A DNA stretch of 64,000 nt from Candidatus Saccharimonadota bacterium. GTDB lineage: Bacteria; Patescibacteriota; Saccharimonadia; Saccharimonadales; JACOTW01. The notes under the pieces were generated by a model. The model was given only the letters and a program-made list of their open reading frames with translations, searched no databases and was not told the DNA's origin. Positions 14 through 49,794 of this stretch are shown here, piece by piece. The stretch spans positions 472 to 64,471 of the forward strand of contig JACOTW010000003.1 of assembly GCA_016178135.1 (NCBI GenBank), in the 5' to 3' direction. The position numbers were made by a program, and so were the translations under genes. Numbering within the stretch: the stretch's first letter is position 1; every line of letters starts with the position of its first letter.

Positions 14-571
14 GTGGCCGAAGAACTGGCCGCATTGATGGTGTTTTGTTGGCAGCTCGCCCCATCAACAGGCGACCTGAAAATTAATAATCAAAGTGAA
101 CGTGAAATTGCTCAATTAGTCGTAAAGAGCCTGCATGAACAAGCATCAAATGACAGCGACACGGCGCAAATACAATATTCTTGGGCTACGAAGAATGTTA
201 TGCGGACATTAGGTATGGCGATTGTAGCACTTCAAGACAAGGATTATGCGACTAGGGATTTTACGGTCAATTTCAATTCTTTGCTTCACGCGAGCGGTTC
301 AGCCAAGCCAGGAGGCAAGGGGATGATAAGGGGCTCTAATGACGACGAGCACCTACGTAAAATTAACCAATTAGCAGCATGCAAGGGTTGTAGTCCGGAG
401 ATGTTTCAACCGGAAACCGAAGCCTCGCCTATAATAGAAGAAGCAAAAAAAGTATGTAGTGGGTGTGGCGTAAGAGATGATTGCCTGGATTATGCAATTT
501 CACATAATGCAACGGGTATTTGGGGTGGTACAACCGATCAGGAAAGAAAAAACTTGGCAAAAAAACACTAA
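14..571 (+). CDS. WhiB-like (Wbl) Fe-S transcription factor with ~110-aa N-terminal extension; possibly 5'-partial at window edge
   Basis: C-terminus CKGC..(n)..CSGCGVRDDCLDYA...GIWGGTTDQER matches the 4-Cys + G[VI]WGG signature of WhiB family. Confidence 0.65.
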   Translation: MAEELAALMVFCWQLAPSTGDLKINNQSEREIAQLVVKSLHEQASNDSDTAQIQYSWATKNVMRTLGMAIVALQDKDYATRDFTVNFNSLLHASGSAKPGGKGMIRGSNDDEHLRKINQLAACKGCSPEMFQPETEASPIIEEAKKVCSGCGVRDDCLDYAISHNATGIWGGTTDQERKNLAKKH

Positions 572-771: not shown

Positions 772-3708
772 ATGAAACGTTATAATCCTAAAGAAATCGA
801 GCCAAAGTGGCAAAAAGTTTGGGAAGATCGAAAGATCTATCAAGCCTCTGAAGATCCAGCTAAGCCTAAACGCTATGTGTTGGAATATTTTCCGTACCCC
901 AGTGGTGCGGCCATGCACGTTGGGCATGTACGCAATTACACCATAGGTGACGTTGTGGCACGTTTTTACCGGATGCGTGGCTACAATGTTATGCATCCGA
1001 TGGGTTGGGATGCATTTGGACTGCCCGCCGAAAATTACGCCATTAAAAACAACATTAGCCCCCAGCAAGCGATAGCCGAGAACACTACCAGGTTTAAGCA
1101 ACAGCTTATGCGGATGGGTTTTAGCTATGATTGGTCGCGCGAAATCAATAGCTCTGACCCCAGTTATTATAAGTGGACGCAGTGGTTTTTCAAGCTGTTG
1201 TTCGATCGCGGGCTGGCGTACCAAAAAGAATCTCCCCAGTGGTGGTGCGAAACGGACAAAACGGTATTGGCAAACGAGCAGGTAGAATCCGGCAAGTGCT
1301 GGCGTTGCGGCAATGAAGTGACCAAAAAATCTCTCAAACAATGGTTTTTCAAGATTACAGATTACGCCGATAGATTAGTAGAAGATTTGGAAGATTTGGA
1401 TTGGTCAGATGCGATCAAATCCATGCAACACAATTGGGTTGGACGGAGCAAGGGTGCCGAGATCACTTTTGCAGTAGAAACTAGCAAGCAGAAAACAGCA
1501 AAGGAAGAAAAAATCATCGTCTTTACGACTCGGGCCGATACTTTGTTTGGGGCAACCTTCATGGTACTAGCCCCCGAGCACCCATTGGTGATGAAAATTG
1601 CGAAAGATTCGCAAAAATCAGAGGTGGAAAAGTACGTTAAACAGGCCCAGGTAAAGAGCGACATTGAACGGCAAGACACTGACCGCGAGAAAACAGGTGT
1701 ATTTACCGGTGCTTATGCAATTAACCCCGCCAACAACGAGAAGATTCCAATCTGGATAGCAGACTATGTATTGTACGGTTACGGTACAGGGGCCATCATG
1801 GCTGTGCCGGCTCATGATGAACGTGACTTTGAGTTCGCCGTGAAGTTTGATCTTCCGATCCGACAGGTATTTATGGAGTCGGGAGATGACCCGGTCAATC
1901 CACCGCAAGAAAAATTCAAGATGATCAAACGCAAAACAGTTGTTGTCCACCTGAGAGATCGTTCATCCGGCAAGTATGCGTTGCTTAATTGGCACGGGAC
2001 ATTAGAGGGTATCACAACGGCGATAATGGGAGGTATTGATGAGGGCGAGACGGCAGAAAATGCCGCGCTGAGGGAGATATCAGAAGAAGCAGGGATACAT
2101 AATGCCAAGATTGTAAAAACTGCCAGATGGATAAGCGCAGCCACCTACTGTGCATCGCACAAACAAGTAAATAGAAAATCAATTTCTACGGCTGTCTTAG
2201 CAGAAGTCGATAACTTGTCAAAACAGACCGAGGTAGCTGATTATGAAAAAAAGACCCATACCCTCATCTGGGTTACAGGTGATGCCGTAGAAGAATCGCT
2301 AATACCGATTAACCAAAAGCAAATCTGGAGTTATTTACAAAACGAGACCGCACTAACAGGTGAAGGTGAAGTCATTAACTCAGGAGAGTATGATGGTCTA
2401 TTGACATCAGATATGCGGGAAAAGATCGTGGCTGATTTGGCCAAGAAAAAAGTCGGCAAGGAAGTCGTCAATTACAAAATGCGCGATTGGCTCATTAGTC
2501 GGCAACGGTATTGGGGGGCACCAATTCCTATCATTCATTGCCCTAAAGATGGTGCCGTGGCGGTGCCAGACGATCAGTTACCGGTGGAACTGCCAGAGGT
2601 CAAGAGCTATCAGCCGACTGGCGAGGGGGCTAGCGTGCTGGCTGGCGTGGAGGAATGGGTCAATACAACTTGTCCTAAATGTGGCGAACCAGCCAAAAGA
2701 GAAACAGACACCATGGACGGTTTTGCTTGCTCCAGCTGGTATTTCCTGCGTTTTGCCGATCCGCATAATGATGTAGAGCCATTTAGCCCCCAAAAAGCCA
2801 AGTTTTGGTTGCCGGTAGATGATTACATCGGTGGAGCCGAACACGCCGTGATGCATTTGCTGTATGCTCGTATGTGGACCAAGGTTATGTATGATGCTGG
2901 ACTTGTAGAATTCAAAGAACCGTTTACGGCACTCCGCAACCAAGGTATGATTTTAGCTCCTGATGGTCAAAAGATGAGCAAGTCCAAGGGTAATACTATT
3001 GAGCCAGATGAGTTATTAGATCAAGGTTATGGTGCGGATTCGGTGCGTCTCATGGAACTTTTTATAGGCCCATGGGATCAATCAGCAGCCTGGAGCGTTA
3101 AAGGTTTGGGCGGTACGTATCGTTTTTTGAATCGTGTGTGGACTATCTGTCAAGAGCATATGACAGAAGTTACTAAGCTAGAAACTGAAGATCAAACTCA
3201 AAAAGTAGAAAATCAGGATATTAGCAAAGAATTGCGACGGGCTGTTCATCAGGCAATTAAGCGGGTTAGTGTAGACTTGCACGATATGGGCTTCAATACG
3301 TCTATAGCTACGCTTATGGAATTGACTAACGAGCTATATAAACTTAAAAGAAGCTATCCGGTAGGTTCGGCTGAATGGCACGATGCTTTAAGTATTTTGT
3401 TGCAATTGTTGGCACCGTTCGCACCCCACATTACCGAGGAATTATGGCAACAGTTAGGTGGACAAACATCGATACATACCAGCTCGTGGCCATTATGGGA
3501 CGATGCCCTGTTGGTGAATAACATCATGAAAATTATTGTGCAGATCAATGGTAAGTTACGGGCTGAAATCCATATTGCCACTGGTGCAAGTGAGATACAA
3601 GTTCTAGATACCGCTAAGGCTAACGAACGAGTAGCAAGCTATCTTCAGGATCACAAAATCAAGAAATCTATATATGTACCAAATAGACTAGTGAATTTTG
3701 TAGTCTAG
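772..3708 (+). CDS. leuS: Leucyl-tRNA synthetase, 978 aa, carrying an extra Nudix-fold insertion
   Basis: N-terminal HMGH class-I motif region (PYPSGAAMHVGHVRNYTIGDV), KMSKS (QKMSKSKGN), overall LeuRS architecture. Confidence 0.95.
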   Translation: MKRYNPKEIEPKWQKVWEDRKIYQASEDPAKPKRYVLEYFPYPSGAAMHVGHVRNYTIGDVVARFYRMRGYNVMHPMGWDAFGLPAENYAIKNNISPQQAIAENTTRFKQQLMRMGFSYDWSREINSSDPSYYKWTQWFFKLLFDRGLAYQKESPQWWCETDKTVLANEQVESGKCWRCGNEVTKKSLKQWFFKITDYADRLVEDLEDLDWSDAIKSMQHNWVGRSKGAEITFAVETSKQKTAKEEKIIVFTTRADTLFGATFMVLAPEHPLVMKIAKDSQKSEVEKYVKQAQVKSDIERQDTDREKTGVFTGAYAINPANNEKIPIWIADYVLYGYGTGAIMAVPAHDERDFEFAVKFDLPIRQVFMESGDDPVNPPQEKFKMIKRKTVVVHLRDRSSGKYALLNWHGTLEGITTAIMGGIDEGETAENAALREISEEAGIHNAKIVKTARWISAATYCASHKQVNRKSISTAVLAEVDNLSKQTEVADYEKKTHTLIWVTGDAVEESLIPINQKQIWSYLQNETALTGEGEVINSGEYDGLLTSDMREKIVADLAKKKVGKEVVNYKMRDWLISRQRYWGAPIPIIHCPKDGAVAVPDDQLPVELPEVKSYQPTGEGASVLAGVEEWVNTTCPKCGEPAKRETDTMDGFACSSWYFLRFADPHNDVEPFSPQKAKFWLPVDDYIGGAEHAVMHLLYARMWTKVMYDAGLVEFKEPFTALRNQGMILAPDGQKMSKSKGNTIEPDELLDQGYGADSVRLMELFIGPWDQSAAWSVKGLGGTYRFLNRVWTICQEHMTEVTKLETEDQTQKVENQDISKELRRAVHQAIKRVSVDLHDMGFNTSIATLMELTNELYKLKRSYPVGSAEWHDALSILLQLLAPFAPHITEELWQQLGGQTSIHTSSWPLWDDALLVNNIMKIIVQINGKLRAEIHIATGASEIQVLDTAKANERVASYLQDHKIKKSIYVPNRLVNFVV
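1867..2400 (+). other. Nudix hydrolase domain inserted in-frame inside leuS (after the CP1/editing region AHDERDFEFAVKFDLPIRQV)
   Basis: Perfect Nudix box GGIDEGETAENAALREISEEAGI (GX5EX7REUXEEXGU); segment ~130 aa longer than the equivalent E. coli LeuRS linker. Confidence 0.7.
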
Positions 3709-3999: not shown

Positions 4000-4473
4000 G
4001 TGGCATCTAATCGTCATCTTGGCCGTATAATTGCACTTCAGACGCTCTATGAACAGGATTTTCGCAGTGAATGCGAAGATAAGGGCTTTAATCTGGTCGC
4101 GGTGCTTGAACGCAATATTGGCAGGTATCGTGATATGCTTGACGGTGGTGATTTTACTGAAAGTCTGGTTAATGGTGTCAACGCGAAAGAAGTCGAATTA
4201 AATAAGTTGCTTAAGCCCATAGCCCCAGAAAGACCAATTGATCAGATTGCTCGCATGGACCTTATAGTATTGCACATTGGCGTTTACGAACTTCTATACG
4301 AACAAGGTACACCGCCAAAAGTGGTTATTAATGAGGCAGTTGAGCTGGCAAAATCTTTTGGCGGAGATAATTCTTCAAAATTTATCAACGGCGTATTAGG
4401 TACGCTGCTAAAACAAATAGAAGCCACTAAATCTACACCCAAATCAGTTAAAATTAAGAAAGACAATAAATGA
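4000..4473 (+). CDS. nusB: Transcription antitermination factor NusB
   Basis: IALQTLYE..., C-terminal [13 protein letters not shown] motif typical of NusB. Confidence 0.85.
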
Positions 4474-4486
4474 ACACTAATACTCT

Positions 4487-4646
4487 ACTGGACTTACGCA
4501 AAGCTCCCTCATCCCCAGACCAACTAACCTCGGCTACAAACAGTTTTTCCTCTCTCGATGTACCTTCAGGTACCTCTCCTTCAGATAAAACTGTTTTCGC
4601 TCGAGCTGATTCGCCCTGGGAACGGGGGATTTTGCATAAGTCCAGT
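4487..4646. repeat. MITE-like palindromic repeat, canonical copy (orientation B)
   Basis: ctggacttacgcaaagctccc..ccccagaccaac...ctctcgatgtaccttcaggtacctctccttcag...gctcgagctga..cctgggaacggg..ttttgcataagtccagt; terminal inverted repeats and central hairpin. Confidence 0.9.
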
Positions 4647-4735
4647 TTAGAATCATATAAACTGGATCAGATTCGACACACTATTCATAATACATATTAC
4701 GCAAGACACTCTAGGCAAGCGCTCGAGGTACAATC

Positions 4736-5233
4736 ATGAAACGACCAAAGCCAATCCAAGGTTTTAAAAAATTTGTTACTGACCGTAAACCAGTAATTAA
4801 CGAGGTAGTTCGTGAACCAACCGCCGGTGGAGTGATTTTTAGACATAATGATAAAAATGAAATCGAAATTCTACTTATTCAAGATGCCAGAAATCGCTGG
4901 ACCATTCCAAAAGGTCATATTGAAGAAGGCGAATCAGCGAAGCAGACTGCTGAAAGGGAAATTCGCGAAGAGACAGGCTTGGAGGAAGTGAAGATTTTGA
5001 GCTGGCTTGGTAAAATTAATTTTCGCTACCGTCGTCAACAAAGCCTGGTGCTTATGACAACCGAAATTTTTCTAGTAAAGGCTCTTAACAGGACCGATAA
5101 AATAAAGCCTGAAGATTGGATGAACGATATTAAATGGTTCACGGCAACCGAGGCGCTTGATAAAATTGAATATGATGATATAGGCAAGTTGATGTTGTTA
5201 GGACTAAAAAAGATTAGACAGGACAAGTTTTAA
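4736..5233 (+). CDS. Nudix hydrolase (MutT family)
   Basis: Nudix box GHIEEGESAKQTAEREIREETGL. Confidence 0.85.
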   Translation: MKRPKPIQGFKKFVTDRKPVINEVVREPTAGGVIFRHNDKNEIEILLIQDARNRWTIPKGHIEEGESAKQTAEREIREETGLEEVKILSWLGKINFRYRRQQSLVLMTTEIFLVKALNRTDKIKPEDWMNDIKWFTATEALDKIEYDDIGKLMLLGLKKIRQDKF

Positions 5234-5234
5234 G

Positions 5235-5930
5235 ATGCAAGAAGCTTCCGTGTACTTAGCCTTTGCCAGAGACAAACTGGGAGTTACTTTTAATAATATT
5301 GAACTTTTGATTACGGCTTTTACGCACCGATCTTATGTCAATGAGCATCGTAAAACGGTTAAAGAGCATAATGAACGTTTGGAGTTTTTGGGTGATGCCG
5401 TACTCGAGCTGGTGGTTACGGAATATCTTTTTAATAATTTTATTGATCCAGAAGGTACACTTACGAATTGGCGCAGTGCGCTTGTTCGTACGGAGAGTAT
5501 TAGTGCTGCCGCTACTCGTCATGAGTTCGAGCCATTACTGCGCCTAAGTCGTGGTGAAAAAAGGGGTACATCACGTGCTCGAGCACAAATCCTAGCCAAT
5601 TGTTACGAATCCGTTATTGGAGCCATTTATATTGATCAGGGTTATGAGGCGGCGAAACGGTTTATAAAAGATAGTCTGTTGACGACATTCAAAGACATAC
5701 TAGAGACTGGTTCATGGATGGATCCAAAGTCTCATTTGCAAGAATTAGCTCAAAGCCAAGAAAATGCCACGCCAGTTTATAAGGTGCTTGAAGAAGAGGG
5801 GCCTGATCACGAGAAATTGTTTTCAGTTGGTGTATATGTTGATGGTAAGCTAAAGGGCGAGGGCCAAGGCCCCAGTAAACAAGCGGGGCAGGTTGCCGCC
5901 GCCGAAGCCGCCCTATTGACTTATAAATAA
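5235..5930 (+). CDS. rnc: Ribonuclease III
   Basis: RNase III signature ERLEFLGDAVLELVV plus C-terminal dsRBD-like region. Confidence 0.9.
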   Translation: MQEASVYLAFARDKLGVTFNNIELLITAFTHRSYVNEHRKTVKEHNERLEFLGDAVLELVVTEYLFNNFIDPEGTLTNWRSALVRTESISAAATRHEFEPLLRLSRGEKRGTSRARAQILANCYESVIGAIYIDQGYEAAKRFIKDSLLTTFKDILETGSWMDPKSHLQELAQSQENATPVYKVLEEEGPDHEKLFSVGVYVDGKLKGEGQGPSKQAGQVAAAEAALLTYK

Positions 5931-49374: not shown

Positions 49375-49794
49375 GTGAAGGGTGCCCATGTAGTCGTCAA
49401 GATGCTACTACGAAACACTGGAGGCAACATTCTGCTTTTGCGTCGCAGTGCTACTGATACGCGTCGGTCCTTGGAGTGGGATTTACCTGGCGGGATGGTA
49501 GAAGAAGGTGAAGATTTCGTAACTGGGGTTGTACGAGAAACCAAGGAGGAGACCGGGTTAACAGTCCAAGCGAATACTGTACGCCTGGTGTATACGCATA
49601 CAGCTATGCGGGATTCTGGCAATGTTTGCTGGTTATTTTTTGTATGTTCGGGTAACACAACAGATGTAACAATTAGCTATGAGCATGATCAAGCAAAATG
49701 GGTTACCCTTCTGGAAGGCATAGAAATGATCAAGTATGATCTGCAAAGAAACTTTCTAATATATTTGAAGGATAATAAGTTGTTGGTCGAATAG
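49375..49794 (+). CDS. Nudix hydrolase (GTG start proposed)
   Basis: Nudix box GGMVEEGEDFVTGVVRETKEETGL. Confidence 0.75.
   Translation: MKGAHVVVKMLLRNTGGNILLLRRSATDTRRSLEWDLPGGMVEEGEDFVTGVVRETKEETGLTVQANTVRLVYTHTAMRDSGNVCWLFFVCSGNTTDVTISYEHDQAKWVTLLEGIEMIKYDLQRNFLIYLKDNKLLVE

Follow-up and report, generated by a model that had tools for sequence, protein, structure and literature searches.

The leucyl-tRNA synthetase (LeuRS) encoded by leuS in a 64,000-nucleotide stretch of contig JACOTW010000003.1 from a Candidatus Saccharimonadota bacterium (assembly GCA_016178135.1; the whole stretch is hereafter called the window) contains a complete, autonomously folding Nudix domain within an intact synthetase. 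This inserted domain belongs to a distinct Nudix subfamily of prokaryotes with ultra-small genomes, namely bacteria of the Candidate Phyla Radiation (CPR) and probably also archaea of the DPANN group. The subfamily is specifically associated with LeuRS, prolyl-tRNA synthetase (ProRS) and alanyl-tRNA synthetase (AlaRS), which represent both synthetase classes, and the association takes the form of fusion as well as gene adjacency. We tentatively favor the explanation that the insert is an active, synthetase-associated Nudix pyrophosphohydrolase that serves as an accessory in LeuRS and acts on adenine-nucleotide derivatives. The coordinates of the relevant features are collected in Table 1.

The identity of the insert was assessed by comparison with domain models and by structure prediction. 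The Pfam NUDIX model (PF00293, gathering score 21.1) matches with 34.9 bits when the whole protein is searched and with 38.2 bits when the excised segment is searched alone. An earlier note, made from the sequence only, had proposed a complete Nudix domain inside this 978-amino-acid LeuRS while allowing that a search with the NUDIX hidden Markov model (HMM) might return nothing significant; the match is indeed significant, the motifs of the host are intact, and the proposal stands. The Nudix box, described in that note as a textbook example, agrees with GX5EX7REUXEEXGU at every defined position (G420, E426, R434, E435, I436, E438, E439, G441 and I442). A structural model, also suggested there, was obtained for amino acids 366–545 with AlphaFold2 (AF2) from a 35-sequence alignment. 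It is confident (predicted local distance difference test (pLDDT) 90.2; predicted TM-score (pTM) 0.83), and its secondary structure of β-sheet and helices is consistent with the Nudix fold. When this model was compared with the PDB using Foldseek, 573 matches were found at E ≤ 1e-3, and all 50 of the 50 matches listed are Nudix proteins. The best among those listed is an uncharacterized MutT/nudix protein of E. faecalis (2azw; target-normalized TM-score 0.80), and others include E. coli RppH (~0.70, including structure 7sp3 with bound diadenosine tetraphosphate, Ap4A), the Chlamydia Ap4A hydrolase CT771 (0.69), NUDT15, NudC and MutT1. An intein or other self-removing insertion is ruled out, since NUDIX is the sole significant Pfam match in the insert and the predicted fold of the complete insert is that of a Nudix domain; three other Pfam matches lie far below their cut-offs, and none of them is a Hint or endonuclease domain. 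Around the insert, neither notable direct or inverted DNA repeats in the flanks nor an anomaly in GC composition was found.

Along its entire length, the synthetase that carries this domain conforms to the canonical bacterial LeuRS. It matches Thermus thermophilus LeuRS (1h3n) with E = 5.5e-253, and it scores 1071.2 bits against the TIGR00396 model leuS_bact (cut-off 548.4), the insert splitting this match in two. The AF2 model of the full-length protein has a pLDDT of 88.8 and a pTM of 0.78, with values of 91–97 for the insert residues. With the LeuRSs of T. thermophilus (1h3n/2byt) and E. coli (4aq7), the protein shares the CP1, Zn module, anticodon-binding and C-terminal domains; it differs from the T. 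thermophilus enzyme in having ~148 extra residues between positions 374 and 378 (T. thermophilus (Tth) numbering) and in having no leucine-specific domain. In an alignment of 91 LeuRS sequences, the residues of the synthetic-site signature (H49, V50, G51 and H52) are invariant, and so are the editing residues T252, T253, R254, D256, T257, D349 and D352 and, in the part of CP1 that follows the insert, G532 and S537. Because an identical protein is deposited at NCBI (named ‘leucine--tRNA ligase [Candidatus Saccharibacteria bacterium]’), the architecture is not an assembly artifact of the window; together with dozens of homologs of the same architecture, this deposit also rules out a frameshift artifact.

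The position of the insert relative to the editing domain was determined from the alignment with 1h3n, in which query residues 1–380 correspond to Tth 1–374 and residues 529–730 to Tth 378–580. This leaves an extra segment of about 148 residues, where insert-less close relatives have just 9–18. The earlier note was correct in recognizing an extra segment and underestimated its length (~130 residues). It had further placed the segment after the end of the editing region, and this has to be revised. The editing-domain model PF13603 is incomplete before the insert, being matched over positions 1–148 of 185, and ~40 residues that pair with Tth 378–417 resume after it; the insert is therefore inside CP1. 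The post-insert remainder alone gives no PF13603 match, and its assignment to CP1 is by alignment to Tth 378–417. In the structural model, the insert is at the tip of a surface hairpin in CP1. The leucine-specific domain (approximately Tth 581–636) is missing before the KMSKS signature: query residues 730 and 734 pair with Tth 580 and 637, a difference of ~56 residues (window 2959–2985). Judged by their length, insert-less LeuRS relatives of ~810 amino acids appear to be without this domain too. The idea that the insert compensates for the missing domain was rejected, since relatives without the insert (~810 versus ~960 amino acids) also appear to lack the domain.

To determine how widespread the fusion is, LeuRS relatives were surveyed, as the earlier note had proposed. 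PF00293 is present in 86 of the 120 best-scoring relatives (~952–1000 amino acids, some up to 1452) and absent from the other 34 (~803–857 amino acids). The source names of these 120 proteins are mostly Saccharimonadales; the proteins are the top entries by total score of a full-length search, a selection that biases comparisons of core identity. When species-representative genomes were scanned, eight LeuRS genes, from Saccharibacteria-type metagenome-assembled genomes (MAGs), proved to carry the insert. An exhaustive HMMER search with the insert yielded 188 cluster representatives (E ≤ 1e-3). An impression of extreme rarity, given by a word-indexed search in which the insert by itself retrieved one 223-amino-acid fragment, was overturned by the full-length and exhaustive HMMER searches. 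Solved structures of bacterial LeuRS do not have the segment, nor do many close relatives, and so it is not a normal sub-domain of LeuRS, the other outcome for which the earlier note had allowed. The description of the fusion as unusual thus holds when the comparison is with characterized synthetases, but not in Saccharimonadales, where most of the closest relatives carry the Nudix domain. Some Nudix-bearing LeuRSs of Saccharibacteria type are labeled ‘uncultured Gammaproteobacteria’, ‘Actinomycetia’ or ‘Limnocylindria’ (L001, CAYSUN010000014.1; P0008 and P0039) and probably come from mis-binned MAG contigs.

The 248 domain instances collected are distributed over few contexts. The site of the window insert, after amino acid ~370 (site B), accounts for 181 of them, and a second LeuRS site, after amino acid ~212–245 in the first variable loop of CP1 (site A), for 18; 42 are free-standing proteins (~140–250 amino acids) and seven are in other proteins. 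A few LeuRSs have copies at two further sites in the Zn module, after amino acids ~591 and ~633–641. Two or three Nudix copies, in tandem or spread over up to four sites, occur in the LeuRSs P0019, P0122, P0124, P0126, P0127, P0140, P0141 and P0160. At least nine recurrent insert types can be distinguished, with 41–61% identity within a type and ~25% between types. For the larger types, the LeuRS cores resemble each other only marginally more within an insert type (identity roughly 0.68–0.73) than between types (0.65–0.67), and overall the identities of core and insert are uncorrelated (Spearman 0.006). The core of the window LeuRS is ~72–76% identical to insert-less LeuRSs and ~73–74% identical to LeuRSs bearing an insert of either the same type or a different one. 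In a sliding-identity comparison, this core seemed more similar to insert-less relatives than to those with its own insert type. As total score was the basis on which the comparison set was chosen, we claim only that LeuRSs of the same insert type do not appear to be closer relatives of the window core. Since LeuRS relatives of 72–76% identity do without the insert, the module is dispensable for aminoacylation, and LeuRS works without it. On a neighbor-joining tree of LeuRS cores, at least 10 presence/absence changes of the insert were counted, a number that is indicative only because the tree is star-like and unreliable. For 29 of the 50 copies that are free or in ‘other’ proteins, the nearest relative is a LeuRS insert and not another free copy; the one at locus L005, a free copy, shares 69% identity with the insert in an unrelated LeuRS. 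The interleaving of free and embedded copies, together with the presence/absence changes, indicates repeated loss and gain, or exchange of cassettes.

Nudix domains are not the only enzymes found within LeuRS. In the CP1 and Zn-module loops, Ser_hydrolase/alpha-beta hydrolase domains and HAD phosphatases were detected at both sites A and C. Also detected were a Ham1/ITPase domain (202 bits) at a further C-terminal position and, according to a precomputed Pfam record, an ASCH domain in another LeuRS variant. Several LeuRS inserts of 130–240 amino acids have no Pfam match. The variants inspected for non-Nudix extra length were P0028, P0123, P0125, P0135, P0178 and P0071 (LeuRSs of 1073–1330 amino acids). 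LeuRS in these organisms is a recurrent host of inserted enzyme domains, of which Nudix is by far the commonest.

To delimit the subfamily, a family HMM was built from the inserts, and members were defined by a score of at least ~120 bits and a [FY][FY]AxHKxxNR motif 15–16 residues after the box; this grouping is defined here and is not a curated one. Members score 123–194 bits (160.6–166.9 for the window insert), and other Nudix proteins in the same loci score at most 52. Among the latter, the Nudix proteins encoded next to nusB reach 43–52 bits and the remainder stay below 32. In the LeuRS site-B copies, the signature is conserved at.94 for the aromatic residue,.93 for K,.85 for N and.71 for R, and the motif is also present in free-standing, site-A and ProRS copies. 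In the box, family-wide conservation is.99 for G420,.82 for E426,.85 for R434,.99 for E435,.99 for E438, 1.00 for E439 and.95 for G441. The three glutamates E435, E438 and E439 are 99–100% conserved among the 181 site-B copies, and equally so in site-A and free-standing copies. The mean identity of the inserts is ~29%, versus ~64% for the LeuRS cores bearing them. Because the metal-binding glutamates are conserved at ~99–100% despite this low identity of the inserts, the module is probably catalytically active.

Departures from the canonical box follow a pattern. E426 and R434 are replaced together: 194 copies have both and 37 have neither (Fisher p = 2.5e-31, uncorrected for phylogeny). The triad E435/E438/E439 is kept in 41 of the 45 copies without E426. 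The joint loss looks like a coupled change of a structural pair and not like decay of the active site. Among the 12 members of the window’s own insert type, eight have a variant box (E426Q with loss of R434) and four of these also have G441A; the window copy itself is canonical. All three changes occur in L001/P0001, which is the closest genomic relative.

The subfamily is also found in a synthetase other than LeuRS. P0190, from the exhaustive HMMER search, is a ProRS with a subfamily Nudix domain (153 bits) that follows its anticodon-binding domain and precedes the C-terminal ProRS domain. In total, five clusters of Nudix-bearing ProRSs (641–674 amino acids; P0190 and P0273–P0276) were found, including those at loci L018 (5593–7524) and L019 (2762–4693). 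They nest among ProRSs of ~485 amino acids that are named Nanoarchaeota or Woesearchaeota, and their source organisms are probably DPANN archaea, an assignment that is not established. In three of the five ProRS copies, the box is one residue shorter, with D and K replacing E and R.

The genomic context of ten free-standing members was inspected as well. In five of the ten contigs, the free-standing gene directly adjoins a synthetase gene, which is leuS in three cases, proS in one and alaS in one; in a further contig, it is one gene away from a proS that itself has the insert (Table 1). If ~5% of genes have a synthetase gene as immediate neighbor, the binomial probability of five in ten is ~6e-5. 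The three leuS adjacencies may share ancestry, so the independent associations are possibly as few as three, and the alaS adjacency rests on one contig. At locus L005, the free copy and the insert of the adjoining leuS are of different types, and the N-terminus of the free copy resembles the hairpin flank in LeuRS, a hint that this free copy derives from a LeuRS insert. The other four free-standing members lie away from synthetase genes: two are near genes of phosphoribosyltransferase or kinase type, one is by a Fapy-DNA glycosylase gene and one is by another Nudix gene. Genes of phosphoribosyltransferase or kinase type also flank two of the synthetase-adjacent copies. A metagenome scan with P0146 gave 80 loci, none of them with a subfamily member (maximum 45 bits). 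Within ±6 kb of the insert-less leuS genes at loci L015 and L017, no subfamily member was found, just the gene of the nusB-Nudix-rnc arrangement at 46–49 bits; at the scale of these loci, this neither supports nor refutes a complementary distribution of free and embedded copies.

The likeness of the insert to characterized Nudix enzymes was evaluated for indications of its substrate. The best single-sequence match in the PDB is the asymmetric Ap4A hydrolase of Lupinus angustifolius (1f3y/1jkn; E = 1.6e-4 for 1f3y). The insert has in common with it an identical core GGIDEGE and an aromatic residue 17 residues past the box; the sequence match is limited to the N-terminal half and the box, and the insert is an embedded domain whereas the lupin protein is a stand-alone enzyme. 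In profile searches of the PDB, AvrM14 ranks first, with a match that spans the entire domain (E = 6e-12, profile positions 22–154), and 1f3y is third (3e-11, positions 18–87). AvrM14 is a flax-rust Nudix effector with mRNA-decapping activity (bioRxiv 10.1101/2023.11.14.566975). The profile alignment with AvrM14-A/B (8dp8/8dp9) takes in the K-x-x-x-R of the downstream motif; unlike the insert, AvrM14 is a secreted eukaryotic effector from an unrelated context, has low identity to it and does not share the [FY][FY]A-x-H portion of the motif. With the Chlamydia Ap4A hydrolase CT771 (4mpo), the match is at the level of the fold only.

Among the NCBIfam families, the RppH models are matched by most members (34 of 35). 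RppH is an RNA pyrophosphohydrolase that also hydrolyzes Ap4A, Ap5A and Np4A caps. E. coli RppH/NudH (4s2x, 6vck and 7sp3) and the insert have in common the Nudix fold (TM-score 0.58–0.63 query-normalized, ~0.65–0.71 target-normalized) and a box start of (Q/M)GGI-x-x-GE. The insert is nevertheless not a member of the RppH family: it scores ~30 bits against cut-offs of 116–259 (30.3 against 116 for the PRK00714 models, the match being confined to amino acids 420–455), the insert family has its own signature, and its members are embedded in or located beside synthetases. Since none of the family scores comes near its curated cut-off, the insert represents a subfamily of its own, and homology assigns it no substrate. 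A further lead is provided by a rule that Dunn and colleagues reportedly proposed in 1999, by which an aromatic residue (Tyr) 16–18 residues downstream of the box marks ApnA hydrolases. Y459, 17 residues past the box end I442, fits this rule, which we take as a lead and not as a curated test, and F or Y occupies the column in 94% of site-B copies.

These leads, weak as they are, can be combined in a tentative mechanism. Dinucleoside polyphosphates arise from the reaction of an enzyme-bound aminoacyl-adenylate with ATP or some other nucleotide. In the proposed mechanism, a divalent metal would be bound by the three conserved glutamates of the box, and the Nudix site would cleave a pyrophosphate bond of an adenine-nucleotide derivative made by all synthetases. 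The best candidate substrates would be the dinucleoside polyphosphates Ap4A, Ap3A and Ap4N; an Ap4A-type substrate, which the earlier note had also named as a candidate, is our leading suggestion from the sequence comparisons and from the link of the subfamily to three synthetases of both classes, a reasonable lead though a doubtful one. Breaking these compounds down where they are made would give AMP and ATP, or ADP, back to the nucleotide pool of an organism that has to salvage its nucleotides. Because LeuRS keeps its synthetic and editing sites besides the Nudix domain, the protein would be a bifunctional enzyme.

Several points weigh against this explanation. LeuRS and ProRS are not known to be the most prolific producers of Ap4A. 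The likeness to characterized Ap4A hydrolases and RppH is largely confined to the box (~30 bits versus a cut-off of at least 116), and the downstream-tyrosine rule is a weak predictor. Four of the ten free-standing members are away from synthetase genes, two of them close to genes of nucleotide-salvage type. The unrelated hydrolases at some of the same LeuRS sites fit a generic model of permissive loops as well as they fit specific coupling. Finally, with variant boxes in eight of the 12 members of the window’s insert type, some relaxation of constraint may have occurred.

The model of permissive loops leads to a different explanation, in which the insert is a housekeeping or salvage hydrolase unlinked to aminoacylation, a passenger in CP1 and Zn-module loops that tolerate insertions, whose fusion to an essential and constitutively expressed gene would ensure that it is made despite the scarcity of regulators in a tiny genome. 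It would account for the presence of unrelated small hydrolases (HAD, Ser_hydrolase and Ham1/ITPase, with ASCH on record) in the LeuRSs of other lineages, for Nudix copies at four sites and in tandem, for the fast evolution of the insert surfaces, for a gain and loss that does not track the host (the lack of correlation and the at least 10 changes on a poorly resolved tree described above) and for the two non-synthetase-adjacent free copies near phosphoribosyltransferase- or kinase-type genes. It is difficult to reconcile with the extreme host preference, with 199 of 248 instances in LeuRS, and with the repetition of the association over three synthetases of both classes. Permissive loops predict neither the adjacency to alaS and proS nor the insertion into ProRS, and in the loci examined none of the other Nudix genes in these genomes, for example the one between nusB and rnc, lies inside a synthetase. 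We regard an unlinked passenger as a serious but somewhat unlikely possibility. Still less likely is that the domain acts on RNA 5′ ends in the manner of RppH or AvrM14, removing a 5′-triphosphate or a cap (NAD, Np4A) from RNA held by the synthetase, such as tRNA. The 5′ end of tRNA lies beside the 3′ end that enters CP1, and tRNA is the only partner common to LeuRS, ProRS and AlaRS besides ATP chemistry. Some DPANN archaea are said, by Randau and colleagues in 2008, to make leaderless tRNAs with a 5′-triphosphate. The best whole-domain profile match (AvrM14), the RppH models matched by nearly all members and the RppH structures among the best fold matches all point in this direction as well. 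Yet the scores against the RppH models are far below their cut-offs, the free-standing copies would have no tether to tRNA, and the insertion sites are scattered (the start and end of CP1 and the Zn module in LeuRS; after the anticodon-binding domain in ProRS), a spread that speaks against any single, exact placement with respect to the 5′ end of tRNA.

A non-catalytic role, in which the Nudix fold has lost hydrolase activity and serves as a nucleotide-sensing, regulatory, structural or tRNA-binding domain, seems improbable to us. The variant boxes of the window’s insert type, including that of the closest genomic relative with all three changes, speak for such a role, and with the leucine-specific domain missing, a compensating module for tRNA contact is conceivable. 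Against this, the box of the window copy is perfect, the glutamate triad is conserved in highly divergent inserts and retained in nearly all variant-box copies, and insert-less relatives appear to be without the leucine-specific domain too. The earlier note had also named an editing-related activity. In such a role, the Nudix domain would, for example, hydrolyze misactivated aminoacyl-adenylate or mischarged tRNA. The sole support for this is the location inside CP1, and we consider it very improbable. The canonical editing site is intact and invariant, equally close LeuRS relatives lack the insert, and unrelated hydrolases occupy some of the same LeuRS sites in other lineages. The subfamily is also found in a ProRS type with no recorded editing domain, at LeuRS sites outside CP1 and as free-standing proteins. 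Moreover, aminoacyl-adenylates and aminoacyl-tRNA esters have no pyrophosphate bond of the kind that Nudix enzymes cleave.

The favored explanation of an accessory pyrophosphohydrolase can be extended to a broader one, which we put forward as unlikely but worth stating. CPR bacteria and DPANN-type archaea may have evolved a dedicated, synthetase-tethered Nudix enzyme that is physically coupled to LeuRS, ProRS and AlaRS and adds a further functional layer to aminoacylation. It would act on nucleotide by-products or alarmones (Ap4A/Ap4N) arising in the synthetase active site, or on the 5′ end of the bound tRNA (removal of triphosphate or cap). LeuRS would then be a modular scaffold whose defined loops repeatedly take up small hydrolases (Nudix, HAD, ITPase and alpha/beta-hydrolase), and insert cassettes would pass back and forth between leuS alleles and free genes.

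Table 1 Features of the Nudix-bearing leuS in the window and of free-standing members of the Nudix subfamily at other loci.
Feature	Amino acids	Location	Strand	Basis or context
leuS, bacterial-type leucyl-tRNA synthetase bearing the insert	978 in total	772..3708	+	uninterrupted open reading frame; TIGR00396; 1h3n match; AF2
HIGH signature HVGH, synthetic site	49–52	916..927	+	read from sequence
CP1 editing domain, N-terminal part	220–376	1429..1899	+	PF13603, 218 bits
Thr-rich editing motif TTRADT	252–257	1525–1542	+	read from sequence
Asp-containing motif AHDERDFEFA	347–356	1810–1839	+	read from sequence
Inserted segment, ~148 amino acids	381–528	1912..2355	+	gap between Tth 374 and 378 in 1h3n alignment
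Pfam NUDIX match	392–506	1945..2289	+	PF00293, whole-protein search
Nudix box GGIDEGETAENAALREISEEAGI	420–442	2029..2097	+	read from sequence
Subfamily signature YCASHKQVNR	459–468	2146..2175	+	family consensus [FY][FY]AxHKxxNR
CP1 C-terminal remainder (GEGEVINSG...), then KMRDWLISRQRYWG	529–568	2356..2475	+	pairs with Tth 378–417
KMSKS signature	734–738	2971..2985	+	read from sequence
Free-standing member		L005 5950–6441		46 bp upstream of leuS, which itself has an insert
Free-standing member		P0195 contig		2 bp upstream of leuS with insert
Free-standing member		L025 4001–4573		10 bp upstream of LeuRS N-terminus (E = 9e-17)
Free-standing member		L023 5001–5477		97 bp upstream of alaS
Free-standing member		L022 357–896		15 bp downstream of ProRS C-terminus (61.7 bits)
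Free-standing member		L019 1533–2084		one gene away, upstream of proS with insert

The window also encodes two stand-alone Nudix proteins (4736–5233 and 49375–49794), as the earlier note had reported; Pfam confirms both, with 68.5 and 68.9 bits, respectively. That they are paralogs of the insert subfamily is ruled out by the family HMM, on which they score 51 and 27 bits versus 167 for the insert. The former belongs to a separate orthologous group and to a cluster, leuS - nusB - Nudix (~164 amino acids) - rnc (RNase III) - rpsP - KH - trmD, that is conserved with or without the leuS insert (window 4000–5930; loci L015 and L017 and other Saccharibacteria loci). Its place beside the RNase III gene suggests a possible role in RNA processing. 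An open reading frame of 89 amino acids between nusB and this Nudix gene (4470–4739, + strand) has no Pfam match, and it may not be a real gene, because at related loci nusB is followed directly by the Nudix gene. Upstream of leuS, the product of an open reading frame at 14–571 (+ strand) has a C-terminal WhiB-type domain (PF02467, 59.3 bits, amino acids 120–181), and its ~120 preceding residues have no Pfam match.

Synthetases with an added catalytic domain are already known; they are well documented in eukaryotes and rare and poorly studied in bacteria. A bacterial precedent for a class I synthetase with a second enzyme domain is NCBIfam NF040702 (‘isoleucine--tRNA ligase, N-acetyltransferase domain-containing’), in which, unlike the window LeuRS, the added domain is GNAT and the host is isoleucyl-tRNA synthetase; the window LeuRS matches this model weakly, via the class I core common to both. 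For a Nudix-bearing LeuRS, NCBIfam has no model. The Nudix-bearing proteins themselves are public with precomputed Pfam architectures. Literature searches directed at earlier accounts of a Nudix-bearing LeuRS or ProRS brought up none, and a paper on CPR/DPANN synthetases that was consulted does not mention one. Three features are unexpected: the insert lies within its host protein, it can be present in several copies, and the association spans synthetases of both classes.

Throughout a whole lineage of episymbiotic, ultra-small bacteria, a second enzyme is lodged in the editing domain of a synthetase that is essential. The ties of its subfamily to at least three synthetases of both classes, through fusion and gene adjacency, offer a concrete and testable link between aminoacylation and either nucleotide/alarmone (Ap4A) metabolism or the processing of tRNA 5′ ends. 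These organisms cannot make their own nucleotides. The predicted second activity is invisible in current annotation, where the proteins are named just ‘leucine--tRNA ligase’. The surface loops of LeuRS emerge as natural, repeatedly used sites of domain insertion, which is relevant to protein engineering and to the way in which functions are packed into reduced genomes.

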